A stretch of DNA of 46,270 bases, from NCBI GenBank assembly GCA_050298835.1, contig JBNKUW010000002.1:1-46270 (forward strand), given 5' to 3'. The DNA is from Marivivens sp. (GTDB lineage: Bacteria > Pseudomonadota > Alphaproteobacteria > Rhodobacterales > Rhodobacteraceae). A model generated the notes under the pieces. That model did not search any database. It had not been told where the DNA came from and saw only the letters and a list, made by a program, of their open reading frames with translations. A program made the translations under genes and the position numbers. Shown here piece by piece: positions 542 to 42,921 of this stretch. Numbering within the stretch: the stretch's first letter is position 1; every line of letters starts with the position of its first letter.

Positions 542-649
542 ATCCATTGAACCGTTGCAAGAACCAACATAACGGTTAATTTGACTCTTCGAAACATACA
601 ACCAGATTTAATTAATTTTTTTACTTCACATCAAAATTTACCGAGAAAC

Positions 650-2440: not shown

Positions 2441-2461
2441 AAAAGTTTTATATTTTTTTAA

Positions 2462-5339: not shown

Positions 5340-5340
5340 A

Positions 5341-7136: not shown

Positions 7137-7137
7137 A

Positions 7138-7917: not shown

Positions 7918-7919
7918 AA

Positions 7920-17190: not shown

Positions 17191-17385
17191 ATGACTGATC
17201 TGGTTCGCGTGCAGATGCTGATGCCGAGAGCGGAAGCTGATCGGTTTGGCGACTATTGCCGCGAGAAGGGCTATAAAAAGTCACCGTTGATCGCACGGCT
17301 TGTCCGAGAGCACCTGGACAGAGAGCACTTCAACCCGCAGCCGGATTTGTTCGGCAGAGAAGAACGGGGGTTGAAGGAGACGTGA
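17191..17385 (+). CDS. Small ribbon-helix-helix (CopG-like) regulator
   Basis: 64 aa with beta strand VRVQMLM, helix RAEADRFGDYCREKG and KSPLIARLVREHL. AGGGGA RBS. Stop overlaps the MTase start (GTGA). Confidence 0.65.
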   Translation: MTDLVRVQMLMPRAEADRFGDYCREKGYKKSPLIARLVREHLDREHFNPQPDLFGREERGLKET

Positions 17386-18956
17386 CGGACAGTGTCATCC
17401 AGAAAAAGATCTTGAGGCTTCAAACCGGGGCAAAACCGCGAGTTCTTGATCTTTTCGCCGGGTGCGGCGGTCTCTCTCTCGGCTTCAGCGCTGCTGGATT
17501 CGAGATCGCAGCTGCGGTCGAGAACAATCCGACGGCAGCAGCCTCCTACGGTGCCAATTTCCATCCTGATGATCCCCGGCACGCGGTAGCTCGCGATATT
17601 ACCGCAACCGCACCAAGCGAACTCGTCCGTGAATTGAATCTTGGACGGGTGGCAGACGCCTTCGACGTTGTCGTCGGTGGTCCACCATGCCAAGCTTTTG
17701 CACGCGTCGGCAGATCGAAGCTGCGCGAAATCGAGGCGCATCCCGACGCGTTCCGCCAGGACCCGCGTGCAAAGCTGTATGCGCCCTATCTCAAATACGT
17801 GAAATCTTGCCGGCCGGTCGTGATTCTCATGGAGAACGTTCCGGACGTGATGAATTTCGGCGGACATAACGTGCCTGAAGAGGTCTGCGAAGTTCTCGAA
17901 GAGCTTGGATATATCTGCACTTACACCTTGCTGAATGCCGCGTTCTACGGCGTACCGCAAACGCGCGAGCGCATGTTCCTGATCGCATATCATCGCGAGA
18001 TGGCCGCAACCGTCACCTTCCCTGAACCGACCCACTGGATCGATCTTCCTCCCGGCTACGAAGGATCGCGTCAGGTCGCGTTGAAACTGTTGTCAAAAGG
18101 CGGGCTGTTTGAGGATGCGCATAATTATGTGTCTCCTCCTGATGCGACTGAGGCTCTCTGTCCAGCCATCACGGCGGAGGAAGCGATCGGCGACCTCCCG
18201 AAAATTGATGCGCGCGAGCTGGTGCGTAAGGGCGAACTTAAACGCGGCGCACGAAGGTTCGATCGACTGTCCAGATATGATGGAAGACGCACGGAGTCGG
18301 CATACGCGGGGGCGATGAAGAACTGGCCCGGCTTTGAGGCCAGTGACGGCATCTATGATCATGTCATCAGGTATCTGCCTCGCGACTACCAGCTGTTTGC
18401 CCGCATGAAGGAAGGTGATCAGTATCCGGAAGCGCACGCGCTCGCCCTGAAAATGTTCGAAGAGAAGCTGTCGGCGCTTGCGAAGAAGAGGCCGCGCATC
18501 AGGCAGGGATCTGAGGAATACGAAGAACTGAAAAACTCTATCGTGCCGCCCTACGATGCGGGCAAGTTTCCGAACAAATGGCGGAAGATATCCCGGGATC
18601 AGCCGGTGCGCACGATCATGGCGCATCTCAGCAAGGACGGGTACAGCCATATCCACTACGACGATGCTCAGGCCCGGACGATTTCCGTCCGCGAAGCGGC
18701 ACGTTTCCAGTCCTTCCCAGACGGCTTCGTGTTTTCGGGCGCAATGAACGAGGCATTCCGCCAGATCGGAAATGCTGTCCCGCCGCTGATGGCGAAAGCG
18801 ATCGCCACCGAAATCATGAAGACGATCGAGATATCGGCCGGAGCGCATTTGATACGACCGACGTTCATTCCGCTTGCAGCGGCTGCGGCATCCGAAGCCG
18901 GATCACCAGTCCTAGCGCGCGATCCCGTCGGGATGGAGAAGGTGATTGAACCCTGA
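17382..18956 (+). CDS. DNA (cytosine-5) methyltransferase, DrmMII-like
   Basis: Motif I DLFAGCGG, IV GGPPCQ, VI ENV, VIII PQTRER, IX RTISVREAARFQSFPD, X QIGNAVPP. Confidence 0.95.
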   Translation: MTDSVIQKKILRLQTGAKPRVLDLFAGCGGLSLGFSAAGFEIAAAVENNPTAAASYGANFHPDDPRHAVARDITATAPSELVRELNLGRVADAFDVVVGGPPCQAFARVGRSKLREIEAHPDAFRQDPRAKLYAPYLKYVKSCRPVVILMENVPDVMNFGGHNVPEEVCEVLEELGYICTYTLLNAAFYGVPQTRERMFLIAYHREMAATVTFPEPTHWIDLPPGYEGSRQVALKLLSKGGLFEDAHNYVSPPDATEALCPAITAEEAIGDLPKIDARELVRKGELKRGARRFDRLSRYDGRRTESAYAGAMKNWPGFEASDGIYDHVIRYLPRDYQLFARMKEGDQYPEAHALALKMFEEKLSALAKKRPRIRQGSEEYEELKNSIVPPYDAGKFPNKWRKISRDQPVRTIMAHLSKDGYSHIHYDDAQARTISVREAARFQSFPDGFVFSGAMNEAFRQIGNAVPPLMAKAIATEIMKTIEISAGAHLIRPTFIPLAAAAASEAGSPVLARDPVGMEKVIEP

Positions 18957-19467
18957 TGTCCACGATACGACCGCCACGAAGGGCGAAACCACCGACGTAT
19001 TGACGCCGGAACAGCGCCGGCTGGTGATGAGCCGGATCAGGGGCAAGAACACGAAGCCGGAAATGCTCATACGGCGCGGACTGCACGGACGCGGCCTGCG
19101 CTACAGGCTGCACAAAAAGGGCCTGCCCGGCAAACCCGACATGGTGTTTGCGAAGTATCGCGCAGTGGTCCTCGTCCACGGATGCTTCTGGCACGGCCAC
19201 GACTGCTCGCTGTTTAAATGGCCGAAGACGCGCGCGGCGTTCTGGAAGGGCAAGATCAACGGAAACATGGAACGAGACCGCCAAGCGCTGACCGCGCTGA
19301 CCACAGACGGATGGCGTGTACTGGTGGTCTGGGAATGCGCCCTGAAAGGTAAACAGAAAAGAAAGCTGGCGGATTTACTGGACGTGGCGGAGACCTTCGT
19401 TCGCGACAGCGAAAAGACATTTGCCGAGATCGCAGAATACGCGAGTATAGAGAAACGGGTGTCCTGA
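18946..19467 (+). CDS. vsr: Very short patch repair endonuclease
   Basis: DVLTPEQRRLVMSRIRGKNTKPE, LPGKPD, HGCFWHGH, GWRVLVVWEC. Confidence 0.95.
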   Translation: MNPDVHDTTATKGETTDVLTPEQRRLVMSRIRGKNTKPEMLIRRGLHGRGLRYRLHKKGLPGKPDMVFAKYRAVVLVHGCFWHGHDCSLFKWPKTRAAFWKGKINGNMERDRQALTALTTDGWRVLVVWECALKGKQKRKLADLLDVAETFVRDSEKTFAEIAEYASIEKRVS

Positions 19468-19525
19468 ATGCGCCACGCAACCATGAGGTTTACGGCCGGG
19501 CGGAAAAGAATTCGGAAACGGAACC

Positions 19526-21625
19526 ATGGCGCAGGTCGAGGTAACCATATACAGGCAGGGACGGGAGATCGCTCGGGTGACGCGTCCCTTGCGGCATGTC
19601 GACGGAAAACCTGTCGTCAAATACAAGAAGCAGTTCCGGCCGCTGGTCAACGGCGGCGAGGTCTGGCTCGACGGCATCGCGCCCGCCACCGACACTGGGA
19701 CAGTGGGCATGAATGAAAGCGAAGCCACCCCTGAATTCCAGGTCGTTCCCCCGGCTCTGATAGAGTGGGACGAGTCGCAGCGGGCGGTGATCGACATGCC
19801 GCCCGAGGATCGTTTGCTGGTCGGGGCCGGTCCGGGCACGGGCAAGACAGCCGTCGCCTGCGCGCGGGTTTCGCACTTGATCGATCGGGGCGGCCTGGAG
19901 CCGAGCCACATCTGGCTGATCAGTTTCACGCGCACCGCCGTGCGTGAAATCCGCGACCGGATCGCCGCCTATCTCGAAGACGCGGCGGCGGCTTATGCGG
20001 TCAAGATCGCAACGCTGGATTCGCACGCCTGGACACTGCATTCAGGATTTGATGAAGAGGCCAAAATCCTCGGCACCTACGAGGAAAACATCGAACGCGT
20101 GCGCGAACTCGTCCGGCGCGACGAGAATGTCGCAGAATATCTGGAGAGCGTCGAACACCTGGTCGTTGACGAGGCGCAGGATATCGTCGGCATACGCGCC
20201 GATTTGGTTGTCGAGTTGATTGGCAAAGTGTCGTCGTCCTGCGGAGTGACCGTCTTCGCGGACGAGGCGCAGGCCATCTATGGTTTCGCGGACGACCACG
20301 AGGTTCGGCCGGGCGAAGCCGGCGAACTGCCTTTGCCCGAGAAGATCCGTCGCGGCGCGGCCGGCGCGTTCCGGGAATGCGAGTTGACGCAGGTACATCG
20401 CACCGGCTCTCCGCAACTTCTGACAATCTTCTCGGACACACGCCGCAAGGTGCTGACAGGGGCGAGCGAGACCAACGACAAGCTCGCTGACATCAAGGAC
20501 GAGGTTATCAGTCTCGCGCATGGCGAAGCGCCGCGCGTTGACGATGCGGCGCTCGCCGAGCTTGAGGATGCTTTCATTCTCTATCGCAGGCGCTGCGACG
20601 TATTGCTGACCACCTCTATGCTGACTCAGAACGGCATCCCGCACCGGGTGCGGATGTCGGGTCTGCCCGTGTGTCTTGCGCCATGGATCGGCGCGGCGCT
20701 TTCCGAATACACGGGCGCCGATCTGAGTTGGGACGTGTTCATGACGCTGTGGACGGACAAGGTATACGGCACGTCGCTGGCCACATGCGACGCCGATGAC
20801 GCATGGGCAAATCTGGTGCGCATCGCGGGCCGCACGCAGACGGTCGTGGAGATGCGGCTATTGCGGCAGCGGCTCGGACGCAAACAGCCGCCCGCGGAAC
20901 TTTGTCATGCCGAGCTAGGGCTGCACGGCCCCATCGTCGGCACCATACATGCGTCCAAGGGGCGCGAAGCGGATACCGTGCATCTGATGCTGTCTGACAC
21001 GCAGGGCCGCAATGTGGATCAGGACGAAGAAGCGCGGGTCGTGTTCGTCGGCGCGACGCGCGGACGCTCGCGGCTGCTGATCGGCCGCGGCTGGCGACAG
21101 TTCGCAAGTCGGGTCGAGGCCTCCGGCAGGACATATTGCCTTCAGACGAAGGACAACAAGCCGCGCGCCCAGGTGGAAATAGGCCATGACGGCGACATCA
21201 GCGCCGAAGGCTTGGCCGGGCGAAGGTTCTTCGCAAACGCCGGTGCAGTGCGCGCTGCGCAAAGCCGGATACGCAGCTTCGCGGACGAGACCGTCTCACT
21301 CGTCGCCGAAAGCGACCGCGACTCCGATTTCGTCTATCGGCTTAAGGAAGACGGACAGGGAGACTGTCTCGCAGTCCTATCCCAGGCGGTCAATTACGAT
21401 CTGTTCACAGTCGCCGATGCCGTGCAGAAGAAACTCGGCGGCGACAGGAGACGACCGCCCGACAGGATCCGGCATCTCCATGTGCGCGGGGTGCGCACGA
21501 TCGTCCTGCCGCCGGATGCGCAAGAAGGCGAGACGCTGTTTGAGCCGTGGCGCAGCAGCGGGATCATGCTGGCTCCGCTGGTGCTGGGCTACAGCACAGC
21601 GTTTTTCGGACGAAGGAGGCAGTGA
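19526..21625 (+). CDS. UvrD/SF1-like helicase with unknown N- and C-terminal extensions
   Basis: AGPGTGKT, SFTRTA, VVDEAQD, ADEAQAIYGF, TIHASKGREAD, FVGATRGR. Confidence 0.88.
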   Translation: MAQVEVTIYRQGREIARVTRPLRHVDGKPVVKYKKQFRPLVNGGEVWLDGIAPATDTGTVGMNESEATPEFQVVPPALIEWDESQRAVIDMPPEDRLLVGAGPGTGKTAVACARVSHLIDRGGLEPSHIWLISFTRTAVREIRDRIAAYLEDAAAAYAVKIATLDSHAWTLHSGFDEEAKILGTYEENIERVRELVRRDENVAEYLESVEHLVVDEAQDIVGIRADLVVELIGKVSSSCGVTVFADEAQAIYGFADDHEVRPGEAGELPLPEKIRRGAAGAFRECELTQVHRTGSPQLLTIFSDTRRKVLTGASETNDKLADIKDEVISLAHGEAPRVDDAALAELEDAFILYRRRCDVLLTTSMLTQNGIPHRVRMSGLPVCLAPWIGAALSEYTGADLSWDVFMTLWTDKVYGTSLATCDADDAWANLVRIAGRTQTVVEMRLLRQRLGRKQPPAELCHAELGLHGPIVGTIHASKGREADTVHLMLSDTQGRNVDQDEEARVVFVGATRGRSRLLIGRGWRQFASRVEASGRTYCLQTKDNKPRAQVEIGHDGDISAEGLAGRRFFANAGAVRAAQSRIRSFADETVSLVAESDRDSDFVYRLKEDGQGDCLAVLSQAVNYDLFTVADAVQKKLGGDRRRPPDRIRHLHVRGVRTIVLPPDAQEGETLFEPWRSSGIMLAPLVLGYSTAFFGRRRQ

Positions 21626-21626
21626 C

Positions 21627-24600
21627 ATGCGCGATAGTCTTCTAGACAGGCTCAGATGCGATCTGATGGGGCCGTATACTGAGAATGAGATCCTGACCTC
21701 ACGTCCTTCGGACGTCTATCTTACCGGCATCTTGTGGCCGCGTGAAACTCGCATGGGTGCGGAGGAAGATGAACGTCTCGGCCTGTCCGGCGGGGAGGAC
21801 AATGAAGCTGACGGCGGCGGCGAAGAAGAGGAAGTCTCGCTGGCCGGCCTCGTACGGCCGTGTTCGGCGGGCGTATCCTTCGCCGCGCGCGCGGTGGACA
21901 GCAGGTCTCCCAGACTCGACGTGAGAGTCCGTTTCGCAACCTACGAACCCGTCGTTCCCGAAGAGGCTGACGCAAATGAGCAGGAAAACGGGGGCGGTGC
22001 CCGGCGGCGCATAGATTGGCTACGCCGGGCGCACGACATACCGGTGGACGACGTCACGCTGGACGATACCTCGCGCTTCGTCGATCTCGAACCGCATGGC
22101 GCGCCAACGGGCGTGCGATTGCACATACGCACTGCCTCATGGTCGGGCGGTACGCTCTCCACGGTCACACTGCTGAACCAAGCCGAACCCGACGAAGACG
22201 AAGGCCGTAATGGTATCGAACGGCTGACGCTGTTCCAGACCCGCGTCGAGATTCGCCCACGGCCGGGCACAGTGCTGGTGGCGCGACCGTCGCGGCGGGC
22301 AGTGCTCGATGACGACGATCGCGGCGCGGCGCTTCTGTACCGCAACGCCCATGAATTCGCGACCGGTCACACCTGCTCAGTCGAATGGGAGACAGGGACA
22401 GATCCGACGACAGCCGAGATGGTTGCCACTAGCTGGATTCCCACCGCCACTGTGCCCGCGACCAGCGCGGCCGGTCACGAGGTGTTCGACACGCTGCGCA
22501 AGGACGGGCCGCTCAAACCGCTTTCGGTGCGTTGGCTGGCGATAGCTGCGCCGGACGAACTCGGCCACGCCCTGCAACAGCTTCCCGCCGCCTATGCGCG
22601 TTGGCTCAAAGACAGGGAAGCGGAAGTGCCTTCACTTCCCGCAGAGTTCCGGGACCAAGCCGCAAAGAACATCGCGATCTGCCGCGAAGTCCACGACCGA
22701 ATGTCACGTGGTGCTGCGCGCATCGCCGAAGACTCCGCGATGTCGCGCGCCTTCCGCCTAGCCAATCTTGCAATGGACATGCAGCACGGTTGGGACCCCG
22801 AGAAAAGCGCGCGGGGCCCCCTTGCGTGGCGGCCGTTCCAGCTCGGCTTCATCCTGCTAGCGGCCGCATCCGTCGCCGACCGCGAGCATCCGGAACGCCG
22901 GATCATGGACCTGCTCTGGTTCCCGACCGGCGGCGGCAAGACGGAAGCCTATCTCTCGCTCATCGCCTTCCTCGCTTTCTACAGAAGGCTGTCCGCCGGC
23001 GACGATCCGGACGCTGGCGACGGTGTCGCTGCGATCATGCGCTACACGCTGCGCCTATTGACCACGCAGCAATTTACGCGCGCCGCCTCGGTCCTGCTCG
23101 CCTGTGAGGCGATCCGTCGCGGACGCATCCGCGAAGCGGGCGTGTCGCGCCGGGAACTGGGAAACACGCCGTTCTCGATCGGTCTCTGGGTCGGGGGCGA
23201 TGCCGTACCGAACCGCGTAAGCGACGCCGCAGCGGCGCTCGGCGGCGCGCCGGACCAGCCGACACCAAAGCAACTCGTGCATTGCCCGGCCTGTCGCGAG
23301 GCGCTGACCTGGGAACACGACGAACAAGCAAATGCCATTCACGTCCGCTGCGAGAACGAAGACTGCCTCCTGTTTAATCCAGATACCCCACTCCCGGTGT
23401 GGACCGTGGACGAAGATGTTTACAGGATACGTCCGACGCTGCTGATTGGCACGATCGACAAGTTTGCGCAGATCGTCCGGCGCAAGGAAGTCAACGGCCT
23501 GTTCGGGCTGAACGCCGGTACGCCGCCCGATTTGATCCTTCAGGATGAGCTGCATCTGATTTCCGGACCGCTCGGCACGGTCGCCGGTCTCTATGAGGTC
23601 GCGATTGACCGTATGTTCGCCGCGCGCGGCGCGCGCCCGAAAATCATTGGCTCCACGGCGACGATCCGGCGCGCTTCCGAACAGGTGGCCGCACTGTTCG
23701 ACCGCAAGACGGAGCAATTCCCGCCGTCGTGTCTGGACGCCTCAGATTCCGCATTCGCCATCGTGGATCGCGACGCGCCCGGTCGCGTCTATGCGGGCGT
23801 TACCACGGCGGGCCGGTCCGCGAAATTCACGCTACAGGGTGTGGCCGCGTCCGTTCTCCAATCCGCTTGGGGCAGCACATCGGATGAGGCCGCGCGCGAT
23901 CCGTACTGGACGCTGGTGTCGTATTTCAACTCGCTGCGCGAGCTGGGTGGCGCGCTTGTCCTGATGCAGGACGACGTAAACGACAGTCTCGCACTACTTG
24001 CGCAGCGACGGGGCGAGACGGTGCGTCACCCCGAGTTCATTGAAGAGCTGACCTCCAGGCGCACGCAGGCCGAAGTCCGGGACATGCTGGATCGGCTCGC
24101 GATCCGCGCCGCCGATCAGGGCGCGCTCGATGTCGTCCTCGCGACGAACATGCTCAGCGTCGGCGTTGATATTCCACGTCTGGGCCTGATGCTGGTCAAC
24201 GGCCAGCCGAAAGGCATCGCCGAGTACATACAGGCGACTAGCCGCGTCGGACGCGGCGACGTGCCGGGGCTCGTCGTCGCCGTGCTCAACAATGCCAAGG
24301 CCCGCGACAGATCACACTATGAAAGCTTCCCGACCTGGCACGAAACTCTGTACCGAGATGTCGAACCGACCAGCGTGACACCCTTTGCCTCTCGGGCGCG
24401 CGACCGCGCGCTACACGCTGTGTTCGTGGCGTTGGTGCGTCACTTGGCGCCCGGCATGATCGACCTGCCGGCACTCGACGACGATGCGATCAATGTCGCG
24501 AAAGGCCTTATAGACGACATCGTCAGACGCGCCGCGGCGATCGATCCGCAGGAAGCGGCTGTGAGGATGGAGCTGGAGCGTTGCCTCGATACCTGGGAGT

Positions 24601-24812
24601 TCCGCGCGCCGCGAAGCTACTGGAGCCGACAGGTCCGCAACTCACTGCTTCAGGATGCAGAACGCGCCGCAACCTTGAGGGCGATGGGACGCATGCCGGG
24701 GGAAGCCTGGCCGACGCCGAACAACATGCGCAGCGTCGAAGCCGCAACAAGATTCAGGCTCGCCGAATGGCTGCGCGAACGGACATCCGGGGGGAATGGT
24801 AATGGCGAATAA
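21627..24812 (+). CDS. drmA: DISARM-type SF2 helicase DrmA
   Basis: WRPFQL, LLWFPTGGGKTEAY, RYTLRLLTTQQF, QDELHLISGPLG, ELTSR, ATNMLSVGVDIPRL, EYIQATSRVGR, RDRSHYE. AGGAGG RBS supports the start at 21627. Confidence 0.85.
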   Translation: MRDSLLDRLRCDLMGPYTENEILTSRPSDVYLTGILWPRETRMGAEEDERLGLSGGEDNEADGGGEEEEVSLAGLVRPCSAGVSFAARAVDSRSPRLDVRVRFATYEPVVPEEADANEQENGGGARRRIDWLRRAHDIPVDDVTLDDTSRFVDLEPHGAPTGVRLHIRTASWSGGTLSTVTLLNQAEPDEDEGRNGIERLTLFQTRVEIRPRPGTVLVARPSRRAVLDDDDRGAALLYRNAHEFATGHTCSVEWETGTDPTTAEMVATSWIPTATVPATSAAGHEVFDTLRKDGPLKPLSVRWLAIAAPDELGHALQQLPAAYARWLKDREAEVPSLPAEFRDQAAKNIAICREVHDRMSRGAARIAEDSAMSRAFRLANLAMDMQHGWDPEKSARGPLAWRPFQLGFILLAAASVADREHPERRIMDLLWFPTGGGKTEAYLSLIAFLAFYRRLSAGDDPDAGDGVAAIMRYTLRLLTTQQFTRAASVLLACEAIRRGRIREAGVSRRELGNTPFSIGLWVGGDAVPNRVSDAAAALGGAPDQPTPKQLVHCPACREALTWEHDEQANAIHVRCENEDCLLFNPDTPLPVWTVDEDVYRIRPTLLIGTIDKFAQIVRRKEVNGLFGLNAGTPPDLILQDELHLISGPLGTVAGLYEVAIDRMFAARGARPKIIGSTATIRRASEQVAALFDRKTEQFPPSCLDASDSAFAIVDRDAPGRVYAGVTTAGRSAKFTLQGVAASVLQSAWGSTSDEAARDPYWTLVSYFNSLRELGGALVLMQDDVNDSLALLAQRRGETVRHPEFIEELTSRRTQAEVRDMLDRLAIRAADQGALDVVLATNMLSVGVDIPRLGLMLVNGQPKGIAEYIQATSRVGRGDVPGLVVAVLNNAKARDRSHYESFPTWHETLYRDVEPTSVTPFASRARDRALHAVFVALVRHLAPGMIDLPALDDDAINVAKGLIDDIVRRAAAIDPQEAAVRMELERCLDTWEFRAPRSYWSRQVRNSLLQDAERAATLRAMGRMPGEAWPTPNNMRSVEAATRFRLAEWLRERTSGGNGNGE

Positions 24813-26643
24813 CCGGCTGGGAGAATTGCGTAGAAGCGCTGCCGTTATGACCTTTGGACCGGGTTCCGTCGTAGACTTCCGCGCGGATGGCGCGCCCGTA
24901 TCGGCCGTCGCGGCGGGGCTTGAGGAATGGGACAGGTCTTTTCCGCCGGCGGGGTTGGCTAATCCACAAAGGATTACGGAACCGCGTTTACAGCGAAAGC
25001 TCTCCGTCGGCGGATTTCGTCTGCCGCCGGTCGTCGATGAAAACTGGCGGGACGATCAGGGAAATCCGGACCGTCGCACCCTCGTCGCGGCGCGATTCCC
25101 GGAATGGCTGCAATGCCCGCAATGCGACCGTCTTGCACCGGCGGGTCGTTGGTCGCAGGACCCCGGTCGAGCCGGTCGTTATTGCGCGGGTTGCACCCGC
25201 AAGGCACCGGGGCAGCGAAAAGTGTTCGCGGTGCCTGTCCGCTTCGTCATGGCTTGTACCAAAGGGCACCTGGACGATTTCCCGTGGCATATCTGGGTCG
25301 GGCACAAGACCGATTGCAAGAAGAAGGACCGCGCCGATCTCTATCTCAGATCGGAACGGCCCGGCCTCGCCGGGCTGGTTCTGAGCTGCCGCGACTGCGG
25401 AGCACGGCGCTCGATGGATGGGGTGTTTAGTGCTCAGACTTGGCGCGGTTTCCGTTGCCGCGGTCGGCGCCCCTGGCTTGCCGCAGCGAACGAGACATGC
25501 GATTGTGAACCGCGGGCACTGCAACGCGGTGCATCGAACCTGTATTTTCCGGTGATCGAGTCGGCGCTCAGCATTCCACCATGGTCAGACGCAATACAGG
25601 AAGCGCTTGGCGTGTACTGGAACCCGATTGTCACGACCAAGTCTGAAGACCGCGCGACCTTCATCCGCATTCTCGCCCAAGGCGATCTTGAACCCGTCTT
25701 GCGGGAACTCGGCCTTAGCCCTGCTGAGTTGGCGCGTCAGATCGAGGATCGCCTAACCCAATACAACGACGACGCCATCCTGAATATCCGCCAGGAGGAA
25801 TACAGGCAATTCGTGTCGGGCATAGACACGCGGGATAGAGACGCGCGCGAATTCGAGGTACGCAACGTGCGCGTGCCCGACAGTCTGCTCCCGTTCTTCA
25901 GCCGCGTCGTTCGTGTTGTCCGGCTGCGTGAAGTGCGTGCCCTGAAGGGTTTCACGCGGATCAATCCGCCGGGTGACGAGGACAGCCCGGACATTGCGGC
26001 AATCGCCGTTGGCGATCCCGGTTGGCTTCCAGCGGTGGAGGTCCGTGGCGAAGGCATCTTCCTCGCCTTCAACTCTGACACGCTCCGCGTCTGGGAAACG
26101 CGAGACGATGTGGTGTCGCGCGCGCAAAGCGTCGATGAAGCGTGGCGGATCGAATGGCACCGGCGGTACGGCGAAGGGGAGCCCGCTTGGCCAATAACGC
26201 CGCGCTACCTTCTGGCGCACAGCTTCGCACATGCGCTCATGCGCCAGCTCACGCTGGAATGCGGCTACTCGACCGCAGCCCTGCGAGAACGACTCTATGT
26301 GAGCGACGGAAGTGACGGTATGGCGGGGCTTCTAATCTATACCGCCACCTCCGATTCCGACGGCACGCTCGGCGGTTTGCAGCGTCAGGGCGAAGCCCTG
26401 CGCATCGAACGGGCGGTAGGCGCAGCGATCGCGGCAATGGAATGGTGTTCCTCCGATCCACTATGCATCGAGGGTATGATCTCCGGCGCCGACGGCCTGT
26501 CCCTCGCCGCATGTCATGCCTGTGTCCTAGCGCCGGAGACTGCTTGCGAGGAATACAACCGCTTCCTGGATCGGGCCTCGCTCGTCGGCCTGCCGGGCAC
26601 GCCCGAGGTCGGATTCTTCTCACCGCTTGTTTCGGGGACGTGA
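24796..26643 (+). CDS. drmB: DUF1998 protein DrmB
   Basis: RRSAAVMTFGPGSVVD, ACTKGHLDDFPW, GASNLYFP, GEGIF, HSFAHALMRQL..ECGY...LRERLY, WCSSDPLC...AACHAC...ETACE. Alternative ATG at 24802. Confidence 0.88.
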   Translation: MVMANNRLGELRRSAAVMTFGPGSVVDFRADGAPVSAVAAGLEEWDRSFPPAGLANPQRITEPRLQRKLSVGGFRLPPVVDENWRDDQGNPDRRTLVAARFPEWLQCPQCDRLAPAGRWSQDPGRAGRYCAGCTRKAPGQRKVFAVPVRFVMACTKGHLDDFPWHIWVGHKTDCKKKDRADLYLRSERPGLAGLVLSCRDCGARRSMDGVFSAQTWRGFRCRGRRPWLAAANETCDCEPRALQRGASNLYFPVIESALSIPPWSDAIQEALGVYWNPIVTTKSEDRATFIRILAQGDLEPVLRELGLSPAELARQIEDRLTQYNDDAILNIRQEEYRQFVSGIDTRDRDAREFEVRNVRVPDSLLPFFSRVVRVVRLREVRALKGFTRINPPGDEDSPDIAAIAVGDPGWLPAVEVRGEGIFLAFNSDTLRVWETRDDVVSRAQSVDEAWRIEWHRRYGEGEPAWPITPRYLLAHSFAHALMRQLTLECGYSTAALRERLYVSDGSDGMAGLLIYTATSDSDGTLGGLQRQGEALRIERAVGAAIAAMEWCSSDPLCIEGMISGADGLSLAACHACVLAPETACEEYNRFLDRASLVGLPGTPEVGFFSPLVSGT

Positions 26644-26644
26644 C

Positions 26645-28342
26645 ATGGCGGTGATGTGGCCAAGAACGCTCCCATCCGACGTTACGGGCAATATGCTGCG
26701 AAGCACGGAATGCGAGGTCTTCAGACGACTGGAGGCCGTACTGGATGACTCCTTCGTCGTCTTCTATTCGAGGCCATGGCTCGGGTTGAAGGCCGATGGT
26801 GAGGAAATCGACGGCGAGTGCGATTTCATCGTCGCGCATCCCGAACTCGGGATGCTGACGCTGGAAGTGAAAGGCGGCGCGGTCGCCTATGATCCGCGCA
26901 CCGATCGATGGACGAGCCGCGATCGCTGGAAAGTCACGCACAACATCAAGAACCCGGTGCAGCAGGCCAGAAGCGCGAAACACGAGCTCTTAAGAAGACT
27001 GAATGCCTCACCGCACTGGAAGTCCCGGCGAATCCGCGCGCGGCACGGTGTCGTGCTGCCGCATTCGTCTATACCACCCGGCGATCTTGGCGCGGATATG
27101 CCGCACCGCATATTCTGTTTTGCCGAACGGTTCGAGGAGGGTTTCCGGGACTGGATTCTTGAGCGCTTTGGCGAGGTGTCCCCGGATGAAGGACGGACCA
27201 AAGAGCTGGGCCGGGATGGCCTTCGGGCGCTCGAAAAAATCCTCGCAAAACCGTTCCAGCTACGCACGCCCCTCAGCACGGTGCTGTCCCGCGACGATGC
27301 CGCGCTTCAGGTGCTGACGCAGCAGCAGTTTCATATCCTGCGCGCGATAGAGGCCGTGCCGCGGGCGGGCGTCAGCGGCGGAGCCGGAACTGGTAAGACC
27401 GTGCTGGCGATGGAGGAAGCTCGACGTTGCGCGGAAAGCGGCATGCGCACCCTTTTCGTCTGCTACAACCGCGGTTTGGCGAACGAATCCCGCCTTCGGC
27501 TCAAGGACGGCCCGCCGGTAACGGTGATGACGTTCCATGAGCTGTGCGCGGATATGGTCCGGCGCGCGGGCATCCCGCAACCGGAGGCTGTTTCGGACGC
27601 GCGCCTCTTCGAAGAAACCTGGCCCGACCTCCTGATGCAGGCATTCGAGCGACTTCCGGATGAGAGATACGATGCCATTATCGTCGATGAGGGGCAGGAT
27701 TTTCTGCCGCTATGGTGGATGGCGGTCGAGTCGGGTCTGAATCCCGAGAGCAGAGGCCTGCTCCGTATATTCTACGACAACAACCAGCGCGTATACGCGA
27801 GCGCGATCAAACTCCCGGAAGACGTTGACTTGGTCCCGATCCGCCTCACGCTGAACCTGCGCAACACGCGGCGCATCCACGAGCTGGTGCGCCAGCATTA
27901 CACCGGCCATGAAATCGAGGCCGTTGGTCCCGAAGGCGTCGAGGTTCACTGGATCAAGATGGACGCGCCGAACGCGCTCGCGAAGCAAATCTCTGACTGC
28001 GTAGGGAAGCTGAATTCACTCGAACGCGTGTCACCGGATGACATCGCGGTCCTGGTCGCCACAGAGGCGGCAATCGACAAGATTGCACCGGACGACCGCC
28101 TGGGCGAATTTCATACCGCGCGATGCGATAACCAATCCGAAGGCCGGATCGTCGTCGACAGCATCAGGCGTTTCAAAGGGCTTGAACGTCCGGTCGTCGT
28201 GATAGCAGCGACGCCGGATACTGTGATAGATACGGAGCTTCCCTATGTCGCTCTGTCGCGGGCGCGAACGCATCTGGTGATTGTCGGAAGCGACAAGGTC
28301 CTTAACCGGATGCGCGGCATGATCGGCGCAACGATCACGTGA
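26645..28342 (+). CDS. NERD nuclease domain fused to an SF1 helicase/ATPase
   Basis: PD-(D/E)xK-type GECDFIVAHPELGMLTLEVKGG and NPVQQA; then GGAGTGKT, IVDEGQD, NLRN, RFKGLE, YVALSRAR. Confidence 0.87.
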   Translation: MAVMWPRTLPSDVTGNMLRSTECEVFRRLEAVLDDSFVVFYSRPWLGLKADGEEIDGECDFIVAHPELGMLTLEVKGGAVAYDPRTDRWTSRDRWKVTHNIKNPVQQARSAKHELLRRLNASPHWKSRRIRARHGVVLPHSSIPPGDLGADMPHRIFCFAERFEEGFRDWILERFGEVSPDEGRTKELGRDGLRALEKILAKPFQLRTPLSTVLSRDDAALQVLTQQQFHILRAIEAVPRAGVSGGAGTGKTVLAMEEARRCAESGMRTLFVCYNRGLANESRLRLKDGPPVTVMTFHELCADMVRRAGIPQPEAVSDARLFEETWPDLLMQAFERLPDERYDAIIVDEGQDFLPLWWMAVESGLNPESRGLLRIFYDNNQRVYASAIKLPEDVDLVPIRLTLNLRNTRRIHELVRQHYTGHEIEAVGPEGVEVHWIKMDAPNALAKQISDCVGKLNSLERVSPDDIAVLVATEAAIDKIAPDDRLGEFHTARCDNQSEGRIVVDSIRRFKGLERPVVVIAATPDTVIDTELPYVALSRARTHLVIVGSDKVLNRMRGMIGATIT

Positions 28343-28475: not shown

Positions 28476-31181
28476 CTATATTGAGCCGTCACCGAACGCC
28501 GCATTCATTTCCTGCAGGCGCCGCAAGATTTGAATATCGGTGGCATCAGCAGGTAGATTGTAAGCCTGCAATACAAGCTCATTCAGAGAACGTAGTGCCG
28601 GTAGATTGTCATCCAACCTATGTGCTTCTTTCCAGCGGCCTAAAGGCTGGCTTGCAAGAGTTCGCTCAATGTATTGACCAAGCTCTTCTACAATCTCGCC
28701 CAGCTGCGACCGAGCGTCGTTTGCAATAAGCGCCGCCAGACTACCGTCTTGTCCAACTATGCGGAAGCTGTCCGCGATCGGAAAGCCACCGAACGTATTG
28801 GCGACTGAGAATCGCGCCATCCAGCTACTTGCTGCAGGTAAGGTTGCTCTGGCCCATACGGCAAATACACGGGACCGGAACAAAGCCGGCACCGCATAGT
28901 CGCCATCAATCACGAACAGGTCTTGAAGGGGAACTTCCTCGGAATCTAGTTCGAGTACAATACCGGGCACGGCACCGTCGACGAGCGCATACCGCCGAAA
29001 TCCTGATGATGGCGGTGTCCAACACTTCATCAAGTCCGCCGACCGCTTCATTGGGCGAAAGGACGGTGGTTTACCTTGTGAAGAGATCAAGGAGAAGAGT
29101 TTCTGTGCAGCCGGGTCCGAGCTGAGCACAAAGTCCCTAAGTAGAAGATGATCACCTTCTGGGTCGCTGTAAGGACGTGTCGCCGATCGGACCGGTCGTG
29201 CATTACTACGCGCAGCAATTCGTTGCGTGGCAGGAACTTCATCCAACCATTCGGAAAGAAGGTTATAGCTGACGCGGACGACATCTCGCTGGTCAACGCC
29301 ACGCGTTGCAACGCTCCTGTTGATCTCGTTTGACTTTATGGAGCCGATCTGAATTTCGTCGGGAAATGTCCCGTCGGAGGCCGCCGATTGAGGCAAGCGT
29401 CGCAGAGTCGCGGTGTCGGTATATCGGACAATCTTCCAGCCCAAATGGTCAGCTTGCTCGACAGTATCGAGCAATGGCGTCTCTGCGGTAACAGCGAGAT
29501 GGAATCGATGAGATTCGTTGTCGATTATAAAGGCACCAGCGTAGTCAGGCGCCCCCATAGTCGCGCGGATTTCGCCTGGTAGATTAGAGAGTTGTTCAAT
29601 GCGCCCCTCTGGACCAGTAGATCGCCGGGTACTGCGGCCAAGCAACGGCGAGATCACGGTATTTGCAAACTCCGGAAACCTGTTCTCGCGCCGCCTCCCT
29701 TCAACGATGACCTGGGTCGCATTGCCATATCCACCGATCTCTTCCGGACTGATGCGAAGAGAAAACAGGACAGCTGGATCGCCTCGCTTAGGATCGCCTG
29801 CCACACAGCTCGCCTCCGAACCGAGTAGAAAGCCGTTCGGTGCATCTTTCCCCAAGGCTCGATCACCCGGATATGAGACCATACCTACTGATAAGATCGG
29901 GAGCGCCTCTGCCTGATGACGTTCCAACAGCTCGCGGCGTACCACTGGCGCTCGTGCGGCGCTGACCGCAAGCTGAATGACATCCGAAATTCGTCTGTCG
30001 AACGAGCGCTTGGGATTGCCCCACCAGAAGGGAGATCGCGCGATTGCTGTATCCAGAATTGCATGTGCAAAATGAGGTTCCCTGACGTCATCTGAAGCGA
30101 AAAGCGTAGAGGGCCGAGTTATGGGGAGTGCAGGAATCACAAGAATGAGCGCCCCGTCGTCGGCCTGCCTTTCAAGAAATTGTTCCAGTTCCAACGTCAG
30201 ATGAGCAGGCACTTTCTGGCCTTCGCTCAGAACGAGCGCAATAACCGACCGTGTGCGAGCTTGACTGAAGTCCGACAATTCCACCAATCCGTCCGAAAAT
30301 ATCTCCCAGTCCGGCGCACCCAGATCCAGATCACGTTTACTTCCTGATTTCAGATGACGAACCACTTCTCTGGCACGCTTGCCATCAGCGAAAATAAGAA
30401 CAGAGGCATCTTCGGTTCTGGTCGTAAGCCGACTCTCCGACGGTTCTGGCTGAGCAACTTCTCGATGGTCAATCTCAGACCCCGCCATCTCAACAGGAAA
30501 TGGCCTTAACGAAGCTCCTAGGAGCGCAGCCAAATTTGAAACGCGTTCCATCGAAGCTTCGACCTCAGCTCCCGCGCAAAGCGAAGCCAACTTTTCTGGA
30601 ACATCGAATGTTATTTCGTTCGGGGTTTGCTCCCTAAGGCAGATCGCCTGGAACAGGCCATCGTCCAGTTGCTCGTCCTTGAGCGCCTTCCGGAGATCAA
30701 CTTCGCACTGTTGCCGTAGAAACTGCCTTCGCCAGTCTCGCGCCTTCGTCCCGCCAAATCTGTCACGCATAAACGCGAAGGCGACACCCGCCAATGTAGA
30801 TACTTCATCTCGCTTGGCATGTACGGCTAAATCGAGCAAGCTTAGCGGCGCTCGGGCTTCGACGTCCGGGTGGTAGGGCGTAAGTTCATCCCAGATGTGC
30901 TCCGGCGTTCCCACATAGGCTGCATCGTTCCATAGAAATACGTCCCGCCAGGGCTGGCCGACCTCGACCGCGAACGATTCACCCGATGGAAGGCGACGCT
31001 GATCGTCTACATCAATCGGATCGAAGGCTAATATCCGTGAGTTATGATCGCCTGACATTGCAGGTCGCGCGACATACAGCGTATTTGCCCCTTCGCTTTG
31101 ACCATACAACGGCATGGCAAAGCCATGATCCGCACAGCGATAATACCCGATCAGGCGGAGGCTGATCTCCACGTCGCTCAT
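28476..31181 (-). CDS. Large multidomain protein with C-terminal MmeI/type IIL-like target-recognition region; no MTase motifs
   Basis: 901-aa ORF. C-terminal LFRSRVFAVWAR...RFSVANTFGGFP and LNELVLQAYNLPADATDIQILRRLQEMN resemble the ends of MmeI-like enzymes. No NPP(F/Y) or SAM-binding motif found. Confidence 0.6.
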   Translation of the reverse strand: MSDVEISLRLIGYYRCADHGFAMPLYGQSEGANTLYVARPAMSGDHNSRILAFDPIDVDDQRRLPSGESFAVEVGQPWRDVFLWNDAAYVGTPEHIWDELTPYHPDVEARAPLSLLDLAVHAKRDEVSTLAGVAFAFMRDRFGGTKARDWRRQFLRQQCEVDLRKALKDEQLDDGLFQAICLREQTPNEITFDVPEKLASLCAGAEVEASMERVSNLAALLGASLRPFPVEMAGSEIDHREVAQPEPSESRLTTRTEDASVLIFADGKRAREVVRHLKSGSKRDLDLGAPDWEIFSDGLVELSDFSQARTRSVIALVLSEGQKVPAHLTLELEQFLERQADDGALILVIPALPITRPSTLFASDDVREPHFAHAILDTAIARSPFWWGNPKRSFDRRISDVIQLAVSAARAPVVRRELLERHQAEALPILSVGMVSYPGDRALGKDAPNGFLLGSEASCVAGDPKRGDPAVLFSLRISPEEIGGYGNATQVIVEGRRRENRFPEFANTVISPLLGRSTRRSTGPEGRIEQLSNLPGEIRATMGAPDYAGAFIIDNESHRFHLAVTAETPLLDTVEQADHLGWKIVRYTDTATLRRLPQSAASDGTFPDEIQIGSIKSNEINRSVATRGVDQRDVVRVSYNLLSEWLDEVPATQRIAARSNARPVRSATRPYSDPEGDHLLLRDFVLSSDPAAQKLFSLISSQGKPPSFRPMKRSADLMKCWTPPSSGFRRYALVDGAVPGIVLELDSEEVPLQDLFVIDGDYAVPALFRSRVFAVWARATLPAASSWMARFSVANTFGGFPIADSFRIVGQDGSLAALIANDARSQLGEIVEELGQYIERTLASQPLGRWKEAHRLDDNLPALRSLNELVLQAYNLPADATDIQILRRLQEMNAAFGDGSI

Positions 31182-31990
31182 AACTGGCCACTCGTAGCGA
31201 GGTGCTCACGGACCAGCCTGTTTATCTCGCTGTGGAAGTCAGCAGGTGCGCGGTTAGGTCGCCACTGATAAGTTTCCCACGCGATCCCTGCAGCAGTGAG
31301 TCTGTCGATCATGTCGTTGTTGGGTCCGTGGGGATCCTCAAGAAACTGATATGGCAAAACCGCGAATTTTACGTCAGTCAGTGGTACGTGCCGAGCATAT
31401 GCCACCTCGATCGCAGAAGCGCGCCGATCCGGGCGATTGCTGCCGACAGAAGCCAATCTTGCAATCTTGGCGAATGTTTTTGGACCGGAATCCCAGTCAG
31501 GAATATCTTTTCCAAACTCTGGCCTCAATTTGCCGTCGTAGTATTCGGCCGGAGTCCCGAAAACCCATGCTATGTGATCATTGACAGCTTGCAGCGTCTC
31601 TTCGAGCGCATAGTCTTCCAGATATATTGCGGGACTGGCTCCCTCATCGAAGGCGCCCTCGAGGGCGCCCCCCGTGTCGAACGGGTATACATGATAAGGA
31701 GCGCCAAGATTTTCTGTGCTGACAAGAAATACAAACGGAAAGAAATCGAGGATGTCGTTCTTCTGATCTTCGCCCCGCAACTTGTATGCTGGGCGCATTG
31801 CAAAGAAGTACACGAGGTCTGCACCCAGTGCTTTGCAGAGACGGGTTTCGATCTGCTCTGCCCGAATGATTTCGCGGGCTAACCCAACCGCTGTCACGTG
31901 AATGAGGTAGAAGTCGGTACGCGCCGTAGTCGCACGGCCTCGCAGAGTACAGTTTGCGACTCCACTTGTTCGTCTCTTCAATATTGCCAC
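31178..31990 (-). CDS. Hypothetical protein with a DarT-like ADP-ribosyltransferase-fold pattern
   Basis: LIHVT..LAREII, DLVYFFAMRPAY, RRASAIEVAYARHVPLTDVKFAVL. GTG start with AGGA RBS. ATGA overlap with the 901-aa gene. Confidence 0.5.
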   Translation of the reverse strand: MAILKRRTSGVANCTLRGRATTARTDFYLIHVTAVGLAREIIRAEQIETRLCKALGADLVYFFAMRPAYKLRGEDQKNDILDFFPFVFLVSTENLGAPYHVYPFDTGGALEGAFDEGASPAIYLEDYALEETLQAVNDHIAWVFGTPAEYYDGKLRPEFGKDIPDWDSGPKTFAKIARLASVGSNRPDRRASAIEVAYARHVPLTDVKFAVLPYQFLEDPHGPNNDMIDRLTAAGIAWETYQWRPNRAPADFHSEINRLVREHLATSGQL

Positions 31991-32132: not shown

Positions 32133-33356
32133 TCAGATTGCCAGCGCTCGCTTGCTCTCATCGTGCTCGTAGGCATCGGCATAGCTTTGCACATCCGTTG
32201 TGAAACAGCCTTCATCGCGCAAGGCTCGTTTCCAGTTGTTCGTGATCGTCTCGGCCATCTGAAATGCCTGCTGCCTAGCGTCGGCGAGTGTGAGGTCAAA
32301 GAACTCGCATGCCTCCAGCGCGATATCGAGTGACGCGTCGAACGAGCCACCCTGCATGATGCCTGTCTCCAGAACTCTGTGACGTGACGGTGAGGGGTTG
32401 ATATCGAAGGCCGGTGACAGCCGCCACCGATCCCCACCGGCATAGATAAAGCCATGGTTCTTCAGGTGATCGTCCTTGTTGGAGACGAGGATCGTAAAGA
32501 CGATCCGCCGCCAGAGTTCATGCAGATCGTCGGAGGGCTTGCTCGAAATCTGGCGGATCACATCAGCGATGTCCGTATAGAACCCGCCTTCGTCGCTGTC
32601 CCAGTCGAGCGCAGTCCGCGCCGAAATAAACGGGATCCGCGTATTGCCGCGGCGATCGAACCGTCGGATCAACGCGATCGGGCTGTCGCTGTCCCGCATC
32701 TCGAGTTTTGCTTCGGCGACCCGTAAGCCGCATTTGGCCGCAAGCTTAAGCGTGGCGACCTCAACGCGCTCGACCGGCTTGGTGTCCTGGGCTGAGGTGA
32801 ACTTGGCGATCCACAGATGCCCGTCGCCTTCGACATTGGCCTTCGGACGAGCGCCGCCGAGCGATCCGGCGACGCCGGCCAGATCGCGGGCTTCTTCCTC
32901 CGCGCCGCCGGGATCGCGCTCGAAGCGGTGCGCGAGCGCCCGCAGGCGGTCGAGCTCGACCAGTCGCGGGATTGGCGGTGTCAGGTCCGACAACGGCTCC
33001 ATGTCGTCTCCGAGAAAGCGTAATGCGCCCTGCCGGGTGCGATCGTCCGACAGCACCAGATAGTCGAACTCGCTGAGACCGCCGCCCAGGGCCTTGGTCA
33101 TCAGTGCACGCCCCCAGGAATCCGGCGCAGCATCGGAAAAACATCCCGGCAGCGCCGAACGGCGATCGCCGCGACCTGCGCTGAAATGGCCGCCCTCACG
33201 CAGAGGCAGGCCGGGAGAGAGCGCGAAGCGGTCGGGCGCCGCCAACCACTCGGCCGCATACTCAAATTGCGAATGCTGTCGCCGGCCGTCGGTCTCGAAC
33301 CGCAACCGCCCGACAATCCGCTTACCTTCGCCAAGGGCGACGATCGCTTCGGGCAT
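32133..33356 (-). CDS. hipA: HipA-family kinase toxin
   Basis: N-terminal FEYAAEWL...FALSPGLPL, DAAPDSWGR, GSLGGARPKA, RRFDR, NKDDHLKNHGF, LSPAFDINP. Confidence 0.92.
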   Translation of the reverse strand: MPEAIVALGEGKRIVGRLRFETDGRRQHSQFEYAAEWLAAPDRFALSPGLPLREGGHFSAGRGDRRSALPGCFSDAAPDSWGRALMTKALGGGLSEFDYLVLSDDRTRQGALRFLGDDMEPLSDLTPPIPRLVELDRLRALAHRFERDPGGAEEEARDLAGVAGSLGGARPKANVEGDGHLWIAKFTSAQDTKPVERVEVATLKLAAKCGLRVAEAKLEMRDSDSPIALIRRFDRRGNTRIPFISARTALDWDSDEGGFYTDIADVIRQISSKPSDDLHELWRRIVFTILVSNKDDHLKNHGFIYAGGDRWRLSPAFDINPSPSRHRVLETGIMQGGSFDASLDIALEACEFFDLTLADARQQAFQMAETITNNWKRALRDEGCFTTDVQSYADAYEHDESKRALAI

Positions 33357-33739
33357 CAGAAACCAACCCCTTCATCATCATCGCTGTCTGGAAGAGTGGT
33401 TTCTCCCTTGCCCGATCCAGCGGGCTTGGCCCCTCGCTTCCGGTCGATCCGCTTCGGCAACGCCTCTCTATCAAGCAGCAGTCCGGTATCGTCAGAGCCC
33501 GGTTCGAGGAAGTCCGAAATCCGGTCGATCTCGCCGAGCACCAGGCAAGCCATGGCCAGCGTGCCGATGCTGACGCCGTCATCGCCCTTTTCCAGTCGGA
33601 TGACGGTTCTCTCGGACACACCGATCCGTTCGGCGAATCCCTTCACGGAGATCCGCCGCTTCAAACGAGCCGTCTTGATATTTGCCCCCAGCGCCTCCAA
33701 AGCTCGGCGCGCATTGAGAGAGCTTACCTTAACTGCCAT
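33356..33739 (-). CDS. XRE HTH antitoxin (HipB-like)
   Basis: LGANIKTARLKRRISVKGFAERIGVSERTVIRLEKG. TGATG coupling to hipA. Confidence 0.85.
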   Translation of the reverse strand: MAVKVSSLNARRALEALGANIKTARLKRRISVKGFAERIGVSERTVIRLEKGDDGVSIGTLAMACLVLGEIDRISDFLEPGSDDTGLLLDREALPKRIDRKRGAKPAGSGKGETTLPDSDDDEGVGF

Positions 33740-42096: not shown

Positions 42097-42921
42097 GTGA
42101 GCTGGGCAATTGAGACCGAGGGATATTCGCAGCGACACGCCTGTGGGCTGGTCGGCATAGATCCGCGTGTGTACCGCTATCGGTCCACGAGATCCGATGA
42201 TGCTGATCTACGACAGAGGCTCAGGGAACTGGCCTCGGAGCGCAGAAGGTTCGGTTACCGCCGGCTGCACATCCTGCTGAAGCGCGAAGGCATCGAGGCC
42301 AACTGGAAGAAAGTCTACCGGATCTACCGGGAAGAGCGCCTCACGGTGCGCAAGCGCGGCGGCCGGAGACGAGCCCTGGGAACGCGAGCACCGATGGCTG
42401 TGCCGCAAGCCGCCAATCAGCGTTGGTCCCTCGACTTTGTCTCAGATGCCCTGATTGATGGGCGCAGGTTCCGTATCCTGTGTGTCATTGACGACTTCAG
42501 CCGCGAATGTCTGGCAACTGTCGTAGACAACTCGATCTCTGGAGCCCGGGTCGCACGGGAGCTGGACGGGATCGCTGAGCGCCGCGGACGCTATCCCTTG
42601 ATGGTGGTCAGCGACAACGGTACCGAGCTGACGTCAAACGCCATGCTCAAATGGCAACAGGACCGCAGCGTTGAATGGCACTACATCGCCCCAGGCAAAC
42701 CGATGCAAAACGGCTTTGTCGAGAGCTTCAATGGACGTCTGAGAGACGAGTGCCTCAACGAACACCTGTTCCGCAGCTACCGCCATGCCCGTGAGGTCAT
42801 TGAAGACTGGAGGATTGACTACAATCTGAACCGACCACATACGAGCCTTGATGGGCTCACCCCATACGAATTTGCAACCAAGTCCAACAAAGATCACACC
42901 GTGAACAGAACTAACTTATGA
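42097..42921 (+). CDS. IS3 transposase OrfB (DDE), expressed via -1 frameshift
   Basis: [41 protein letters not shown]. Confidence 0.92.

Follow-up and report, generated by a model that had tools for sequence, protein, structure and literature searches.

What is the function of two overlapping genes that no family library names? We address this question for a pair in a 46,270-nucleotide stretch of Marivivens sp. (contig JBNKUW010000002.1 of assembly GCA_050298835.1, positions 1–46,270 of the forward strand), hereafter called the window. The pair encodes proteins of 270 and 901 residues. An earlier note, made from the sequence alone, had read it as a DarT-like toxin gene coupled by an ATGA overlap to a gene for an orphan MmeI-like recognition module, between a DISARM-like operon and hipBA; the gene lengths, the coordinates of the overlap and the location were all borne out (Table 1). 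The Pfam and NCBIfam scans gave zero matches for either protein, and the sole PADLOC match of the pair was a weak one to a type IIG model (residues 745–894 of the large protein, E 0.0095), in agreement with the note's expectation that no catalogued system would match. We propose that the pair is a two-gene integrated-decoy defence module, in which an ADP-ribosyltransferase (ART) would be the effector, a new N-terminal domain of the partner (the N-domain) its controller, and the remainder of the partner (the cargo) a bait. We regard this proposal as moderately probable.

The 270-residue protein was modelled from a 106-sequence alignment, with a predicted local distance difference test score (pLDDT) of 93.6. 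DarT structures fill the top seven Foldseek rows, with a best E of 1.6e-3 that lies above the 1e-3 mark, and the VIA fold search gives the same Z of 9.6 for Tpt1 (7yw4; root-mean-square deviation (rmsd) 2.6, 105 aligned) and DarT (7omw; rmsd 4.0, 169 aligned). The ART fold that had been read from motifs is thereby upheld, with DarT and Tpt1 in a tie, and the predicted model places the protein among the ARTs of DarT/Tpt1 type. An alignment of 12 sequences, with identities down to ~20%, shows H31, C52, Y61, F63, R66, D188, R190, and E195 to be invariant, and H31, Y61, and E195 are also invariant among the 106 sequences. By comparison with the DarT motifs, these three residues may be the catalytic triad, in the DarT order. 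The ratio of nonsynonymous to synonymous substitution rates (dN/dS) is 0.04–0.06 against three close relatives. To judge from its sequence, the ART is very probably an active enzyme. In sequence comparisons it is outside the DarT family, as neither Pfam, NCBIfam nor PADLOC matched it to that family (PF14487), and the PDB sequence search with the 106-sequence profile returned no match. The ESM Atlas lists a DarT cluster at 0.87, which is a lead only. Because the Atlas also contains three clusters of look-alikes without a name, with 73, 869, and 69 members, the ART family is probably larger than the sample studied here. The viral contigs and phage genomes searched contained no ART relatives.

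Is the ART always accompanied by the same partner? We collected 99 loci (21 from GTDB, 76 from metagenomes, and two from an order-wide search), of which 92 were assessable after the removal of four in which the ART extends past the end of its contig and three with fewer than 80 bases downstream. A gene with the N-domain lies directly downstream of the ART in 20 of the 21 GTDB loci and in 88 of the 92 assessable loci overall; many loci are near-duplicates or kin, and these counts overstate their independence. The ATGA-type overlap (distance −3) recurs at most related loci. The N-domain is single-copy in 20 of the 21 genomes and was not found in the 21st, with no extra copy in any, and ART identity is correlated with N-domain identity (Spearman 0.70 over 59 loci, among which kin are not independent). 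ART relatives occur in nine plasmid records, and in all seven of those examined the downstream gene overlaps the ART stop. Among 400 genomes drawn evenly from the class there were four ART matches, each with an overlapping downstream partner bearing a diverged N-domain. When the N-termini of nine distant partners are aligned jointly, they match the N-domain profile (hhalign P 97.7, E 1.4e-12); taken singly, three of the nine are clear (L173, L179, and L181), and L171, L172, and L180 are at the level of shuffled sequences. The N-domain has no credible Pfam or PDB sequence match. Its profile retrieved 253 proteins (representatives at 50% identity) from 1.84 billion representatives, and a search for longer proteins gave 36 of ~900 residues, 35 of which were already in the set. 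In the searches made here, the hosts are alphaproteobacteria and one betaproteobacterium. The ART and N-domain pair is a conserved, fixed family, and the expectation that it would stay together in other genomes, often beside restriction-like systems, held.

The part that follows the N-domain is exchanged. Nine of the 20 GTDB partners have the window architecture, seven are ~370 residues long, two carry MreB, one carries Rel, and one is 799 residues long. The cargos with genomic context comprise Rel (two loci, L005 and L034), MreB (six loci), FtsZ with GNAT (L039), CarD (L031), and Ppx (L052), together with PglX (L182) and a UvrD-type helicase (L181) at distant loci. A winged-helix cargo with sub-threshold Mrr_N Pfam matches (E 0.002–0.01) is present at 14 loci, few of them distinct; its comparison with genuine Mrr was not significant. 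Further context-bearing loci carry unassigned classes, and the 300-residue partners of L065 and L074 have almost no cargo. On the ART tree, the cargo changes at least 13 times among 12 classes, for which 11 changes are the minimum, and both Rel fusions and the class with a tubulin-like fold and a target recognition domain (TRD) occupy separate branches. We also classed the best 150 of the 253 N-domain proteins, none with genomic context, by Pfam (59) or by BLAST clustering (the remainder). Among these, 65 have the window architecture (five with added POTRA domains), and others carry MreB (10), leucine-rich repeats (LRR; 8), the 370-residue class (7), tetratricopeptide repeat (TPR)-like cargo (6), HPF (3), CarD, GGDEF-EAL, or a 388-residue class (2 each), or FtsA (1). 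FtsZ, Rel, Ppx, Roc, DnaA-N, a response regulator, FGE-sulfatase, phytoene synthase, a decarboxylase, and a flavoprotein occur once each, 22 proteins are shorter than 270 residues, and the rest are unassigned. A by-eye FtsZ reading of the cargos of L008, L169/L179, and P0253 received no support from profile comparisons.

Several partners combine or share cargos. The POTRA domains of the five window-type partners (P0240, P0246, P0257, P0290, and P0307) lie between the N-domain and the tubulin-like fold, and cargos can therefore be stacked. L039 (5693–8296) has a double cargo, in which a GNAT acyltransferase domain comes after an FtsZ whose motifs are intact. In L182 (3100–7727), the N-domain is joined to PglX, a BREX methyltransferase whose motifs are intact; it is split by a frameshift, and both frames jointly span the PglX model. 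An unassigned 140-residue cargo, which is that of the 388-residue class in L043, is common to L043/L044, L173, P0203, and P0209; because it occurs with ARTs that are only ~20% identical, it suggests that cargo may be exchanged between distant family members. The genes on either side of L043 encode a DUF4365 protein and a type II methylase.

Where a cargo belongs to a known family, it can be compared with the working host protein. The catalytic Glu of MreB is kept in two of 15 distinct cargos and the phosphate-2 Asp likewise in two of 15, as compared to 30 of 30 housekeeping MreBs for each residue (30 of 32 loci passed the open reading frame filter). The mean mutual identity is 43% among the MreB cargos versus 74% among the housekeeping MreBs. 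In the Rel cargo, the HD Asp is missing in three of three and the synthetase motifs are eroded, and the Ppx cargo has lost its first two motifs. Both MreB-cargo genomes checked retain a normal mreB, and the one Rel-cargo genome checked retains a normal rel. The cargo frames are open and under purifying selection (dN/dS 0.07–0.4 in the pairs compared, and 0.12 in one MreB pair). A copy of a host protein in a carrier that keeps the working gene is thus seen in relatives, and in the window at the fold level only. Taken together, the comparative evidence is strong that a constant predicted ART and its adaptor carry exchangeable, often dead copies of host proteins.

The cargo also matches its neighbourhood. 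The 370-residue class adjoins a methylase pair in eight of eight loci, and its cargo corresponds to the C-terminal domain of the restriction enzyme next to it (PLD/NgoFVII type), with the nuclease part absent. Hidden Markov model (HMM) matches to the neighbour were obtained in seven of the eight loci (46% over 123 residues in L019, and E 7e-5 to 0.015 in six others), with none in L042. The tubulin–TRD class adjoins mzaE in 16 of 24 loci, as compared to none of 24 loci with other cargos; the window's own pair adjoins the DISARM-like operon rather than mzaE. In ten loci (L006, L009, L014, L018, L051, L057, L070, L071, L078, and L168) mzaCDE immediately precedes the pair on the same strand in an operon-like arrangement, and in six further loci it is convergent with mzaE.

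What, then, is the cargo of the window's partner? In its model (47 sequences, pLDDT 81.7), the C-terminal part matches the TRD and helical bundle of MmeI (Foldseek E 1.2e-6; VIA Z 17.3, rmsd 3.6, 254 aligned), and weak MmeI_TRD Pfam matches are present in L006 and L009. As the earlier note had stated, this is an MmeI/type IIL-like TRD with a helical tail, and neither an NPP(Y/F) nor an S-adenosylmethionine-binding motif was found in the 901-residue partner, which also has no MmeI_Mtase Pfam match; by these comparisons, the TRD part is without a methyltransferase or nuclease domain. It is the most conserved portion of the partner, all folded parts of which are under purifying selection (dN/dS 0.07–0.39). 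The Arg aligned with Arg810 of MmeI is kept in 45 of 46 sequences, and the positions aligned with 806 and 808 are Ser in 43 and Met in 35 of the 46, in a weak alignment (hhalign probability 3.5). The view of the partner as an orphan MmeI module stood for the TRD; it had overlooked two further parts, the conserved N-domain and a middle domain with a tubulin fold. For the latter, the wide VIA search gives CetZ (Z 10.5, rmsd 4.1, 211 aligned) and FtsZ (Z 10.2, rmsd 4.4, 211 aligned), and the tubulin/FtsZ family accounts for 16 of the top 22 rows. Because the GTP-binding glycine-rich signature was not found in residues 258–496, and the comparisons of residues 255–545 with 29 alphaproteobacterial FtsZs by hhalign and HMM gave nothing, the predicted FtsZ/tubulin superfamily assignment stays at the fold level. 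The ESM Atlas gave no usable match for residues 255–600, and residues 497–600 have no Pfam match; a by-eye Mrr-like reading of the latter was not significant in hhalign against an Mrr protein. The note's statement that no macrodomain or NADAR partner is recognizable agrees with the Pfam and PADLOC scans of the partner and of 52 N-domains, in which neither was matched. The partner fold searches also returned no macrodomain or NADAR row, with residues 1–140 barely covered, and the N-domain may yet have such a fold. Further PDB sequence searches with the proteins gave nothing meaningful.

How might the N-domain control the ART? Damaged loci bear on this question. The ART is frameshifted or prematurely ended in all four loci that lack an N-domain partner: it lies in four frame pieces in L004, and it ends early in L079 (model position 184 of 272), L089 (181), and L095 (210). 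In L004 (6225–9943, Ahrensia), the window's hipBA–ART junction is followed by an insertion sequence that occupies the place of the partner. The loss of the ART without its partner fits an antitoxin role of the partner, and may also reflect an ART that decays after the loss of its activator.

From these observations, we envisage the following sequence of events. The constant ART-fold enzyme would be the effector, and the N-domain would bind and control it, either as an inhibitor or as a conditional activator. The swappable C-terminal cargo, as a copy of a host protein, would act as bait for phage proteins directed against the original. Upon the binding of such a phage protein to the cargo, the ART would be freed or activated, and it may then, by its likeness to DarT and Tpt1, use NAD+ to modify nucleic acid, and stop the infection. 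The window's partner would display two baits. The lone TRD of MmeI type would attract anti-restriction proteins that mimic DNA and are directed at the restriction-like systems nearby, and the FtsZ-like fold, which lacks the signature motif, would attract inhibitors of cell division. A PDB title describes Ocr bound to BrxX, which is a fold relative of the TRD part, and T7 Gp0.4, T7 Gp0.6, and lambda Kil are phage inhibitors of FtsZ and MreB (PMC5624674). The suggestion in the earlier note of a decoy that releases a toxin is the one favoured by the data, although it had been limited to DNA mimics, and the TRD is just one of many interchangeable cargos.

Several observations weigh against this proposal. 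Every MreB locus lies within one ART clade, and the LRR, TPR, FtsA, HPF, and most other rare cargos are known from context-free proteins. The active motifs are intact in the FtsZ (L039), PglX, helicase, and GGDEF-EAL cargos, and the phytoene synthase, decarboxylase, and flavoprotein cargos have no obvious phage antagonist. The FtsZ-like assignment in the window comes from one predicted model at 8–13% identity with no sequence-level support. Finally, a strict antitoxin would not be expected from L055, where an intact ART is followed by a partner interrupted near residue 65 by foreign DNA that resembles an insertion sequence (as judged by eye), or from the N-domain frameshifts in L048 and L092, all three loci being single metagenome contigs.

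L055 is also compatible with an ART that is harmless alone, and thus with a cargo that serves for delivery. The N-domain would then carry the ART, and the cargo would bring it to its substrate: in the window, the TRD would guide the ADP-ribosylation of DNA at specific sequences, as the earlier note had suggested, and elsewhere the MreB or Rel copies would deliver the ART to their polymers or to the ribosome. Such a role would suit the strong conservation of the TRD with its Arg810-equivalent, the DNA-binding nature of several cargos (Mrr_N-like, the restriction-enzyme C-domain, and CarD), and the fact that DarT is a DNA ART (PMC11825919). However, a single ART conserved at a dN/dS of 0.04–0.06 would require unrelated substrates for each cargo. 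Moreover, the near-fixed Ser and Met at the 806/808-equivalents are, in that weak alignment, not the base-reading E-R or K-D, and the MmeI methylase domain, which the partner lacks, also contacts DNA (PMC4833311). TRD-guided modification is disfavoured because members of this ART family are also paired with partners that carry MreB, Rel, CarD, or Ppx and have no TRD, and we consider delivery by the cargo improbable.

Alternatively, the cargo might itself be the weapon. Dead MreB, FtsZ, and Rel copies would act as sponges or dominant-negative poisons, which the ART would switch by modifying the N-domain. Kaur et al. (2020) propose such a role for the inactive enzyme domains in variable regions of the EACC1 and vWA-MoxR systems (PMC7159879), and both the maintenance of full-length host copies under selection and the active-site motifs retained by some cargos would be in keeping with it. 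The broken ART in four of four partner-less loci and the lack of any extra N-domain copy in 21 genomes speak against it, and LRR and TPR cargos suit sensing more than poisoning; we therefore regard it as unlikely. We give the lowest probability of all to an ordinary addiction module of mobile elements, with the ART as toxin, the N-domain as antitoxin, and a largely irrelevant cargo acquired by recombination. The pair does occur on integrative elements and plasmids, beside hipBA, integrases, and conjugation genes, and the odd metabolic cargos and the near-cargoless 300-residue class would be expected. An irrelevant cargo is difficult to reconcile with open frames under purifying selection, with the loss of catalytic positions while the remainder is kept, and with a cargo type that tracks the adjacent defence system.

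Table 1. Features of the gene pair and its immediate neighbours in the window.
Feature	Position	Strand	Remarks
ART-fold gene, 270 residues, GTG start	31178..31990	−	predicted effector
Partner gene, 901 residues	28476..31181	−	
ATGA stop/start overlap coupling the ART and partner genes	31178..31181	−	sequence
N-domain, residues 1–225 (core ~5–165)	30507..31181	−	common to every cargo class; predicted ART controller
Linker, residues 226–257, disordered, cargo junction	30411..30506	−	pLDDT <50 at 230–258; dN/dS 0.6–0.8
FtsZ/tubulin-superfamily fold (predicted), residues 258–496	29694..30410	−	VIA fold search; dN/dS ~0.26
Small alpha/beta domain, residues 497–600	29382..29693	−	no family match
MmeI/type IIL-like TRD and C-terminal helical bundle, residues 601–901	28476..29381	−	Foldseek, VIA; dN/dS 0.07–0.12
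DISARM-like operon: Dcm/DrmMII-like, Vsr, UvrD, DrmA, DrmB, NERD-helicase	17382..28342	+	convergent with the pair; library scans
hipBA	32133..33739	−	upstream of the pair

The pair and the DISARM-like operon, none of whose genes gave a DrmC-type match, are situated in a mobile element headed by an integrase, and the hipBA–ART junction recurs in L004 and L027. The G+C fraction (GC) of the pair is 0.54–0.55, with the same range at third codon positions (GC3), and on either side drmA, drmB, the NERD-helicase gene, and hipBA have a GC of 0.60–0.64 and a GC3 of 0.67–0.74. The pair is thus less GC-rich than its neighbours; the earlier note had called it less GC-rich than the backbone. Since its GC matches the genome mean of 0.557, it counts as low-GC solely relative to the mobile element. 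Elsewhere in the window, a 438-residue DUF4062 and SIR2-like protein (40268–41584, reverse strand; PADLOC ThsA E 1e-15; GC 0.52) adjoins an insertion-sequence integrase at 42097–42921, and is probably encoded by a second defence gene of the same element. About 13 co-oriented open reading frames at 581–14845 (forward strand) have 34–43% GC, far under the genome mean. No tRNA genes were found in the window, the promoter and terminator scan gave a signal at or below the chance level, and the sequencing runs listed included no RNA entry.

How does the pair compare with known systems? In guard-type systems, such as PrrC/EcoprrI, retron Ec48/RecBCD, PARIS/Ocr, and CapRel, the toxin is released upon phage interference with a host or defence function. 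These systems monitor the host complex itself or rely on a sensor dedicated to the task, and we know of none with exchangeable whole copies of housekeeping proteins. The pair shares with DarTG1 and DarTG2 the DarT/Tpt1-type ART fold, with conserved His, Tyr, and Glu residues that putatively correspond to those of DarT, the two coupled genes, and the defence-island setting (PMC11825919). It differs in that its ART has no DarT family match and its partner consists of a new N-domain with interchangeable cargo, while the DarTG antitoxins are NADAR or macrodomain proteins (PMC11825919). In the type IIL restriction-modification enzymes of the MmeI family, the TRD and C-terminal helical bundle are alike (Z 17.3; PMC4833311). 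The partner, in contrast, lacks the endonuclease, spacer, and methyltransferase, has a tubulin-like fold before the TRD, and seems to be fixed at its specificity positions, as far as a weak alignment can indicate.

The closest layouts are found elsewhere. The EACC1-caspase and vWA-MoxR ternary systems also combine a constant 5′ gene with a 3′ gene whose N-terminus is constant and whose C-terminus is highly variable; the variable parts likewise include FGE-sulfatase, TPR, and rare FtsZ/tubulin domains (PMC7159879), and inactive enzyme copies have been proposed as decoys (Kaur et al. 2020, PMC7159879). The core here is an ART and a new N-domain, with no caspase, EACC1, MoxR, or vWA, and the pair and the N-domains scanned have no Pfam matches to the EACC1 membrane domain, a caspase, or a cyclase N-domain. 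Those systems occur mainly in multicellular bacteria and their variable part is read as the effector (PMC7159879), unlike the ART pair with its different hosts and with the constant enzyme as its likely effector. In plants, the paired nucleotide-binding leucine-rich repeat receptors (NLRs) RRS1/RPS4 similarly consist of a sensor fused to a copy of a pathogen-targeted host protein and of an executor gene (PMC11702601), although the ART pair has no NLR ATPase of the STAND (signal transduction ATPases with numerous domains) class and its executor is a predicted ART. For bNACHT11, integrated-decoy mimicry has been raised as a hypothesis, with no recognizable host-protein copy (PMC11702601). By its enzyme the pair resembles DarTG, and by its layout the integrated-decoy pairs of plants; it is a member of neither.

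The search of openly accessible article texts returned no description of an ART and N-domain pair, and the available parts of PMC13434031 and PMC12803255 make no mention of one. The family is apparently undescribed, though its proteins could already figure in extensive tables of predicted defence genes. The layout of a constant core with variable dead-enzyme cargo has already been described computationally for other cores (Kaur et al. 2020, PMC7159879); what is added here is an ART family and an adaptor domain, both of them new. In the parts of the literature searched, integrated decoys in bacteria are a hypothesis only (PMC7159879, PMC11702601).

By analogy, the pair might be a bacterial counterpart of plant integrated-decoy immunity, in which one ART executor and a new adaptor have repeatedly captured phage-targeted proteins; for us, the arguments for and against this broader view are in balance. 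The captured set would then comprise MreB, FtsZ, FtsA, Rel, Ppx, CarD, HPF, DnaA-N, a response regulator, PglX, and the DNA-binding domains of restriction enzymes. The integrated-decoy idea is directly testable, because T7 Gp0.6, T7 Gp0.4, lambda Kil, and Ocr match specific cargo classes and the cargos are swappable on one scaffold. If it is true, each cargo would name a host protein that alphaproteobacterial phages target, among them Rel, Ppx, and HPF, for which no antagonist is known to us, and would serve as a bait for its antagonist. Seen in this way, the cargos would amount to an inventory of the targets of alphaproteobacterial phages, and the N-domain would be a programmable trip-wire.

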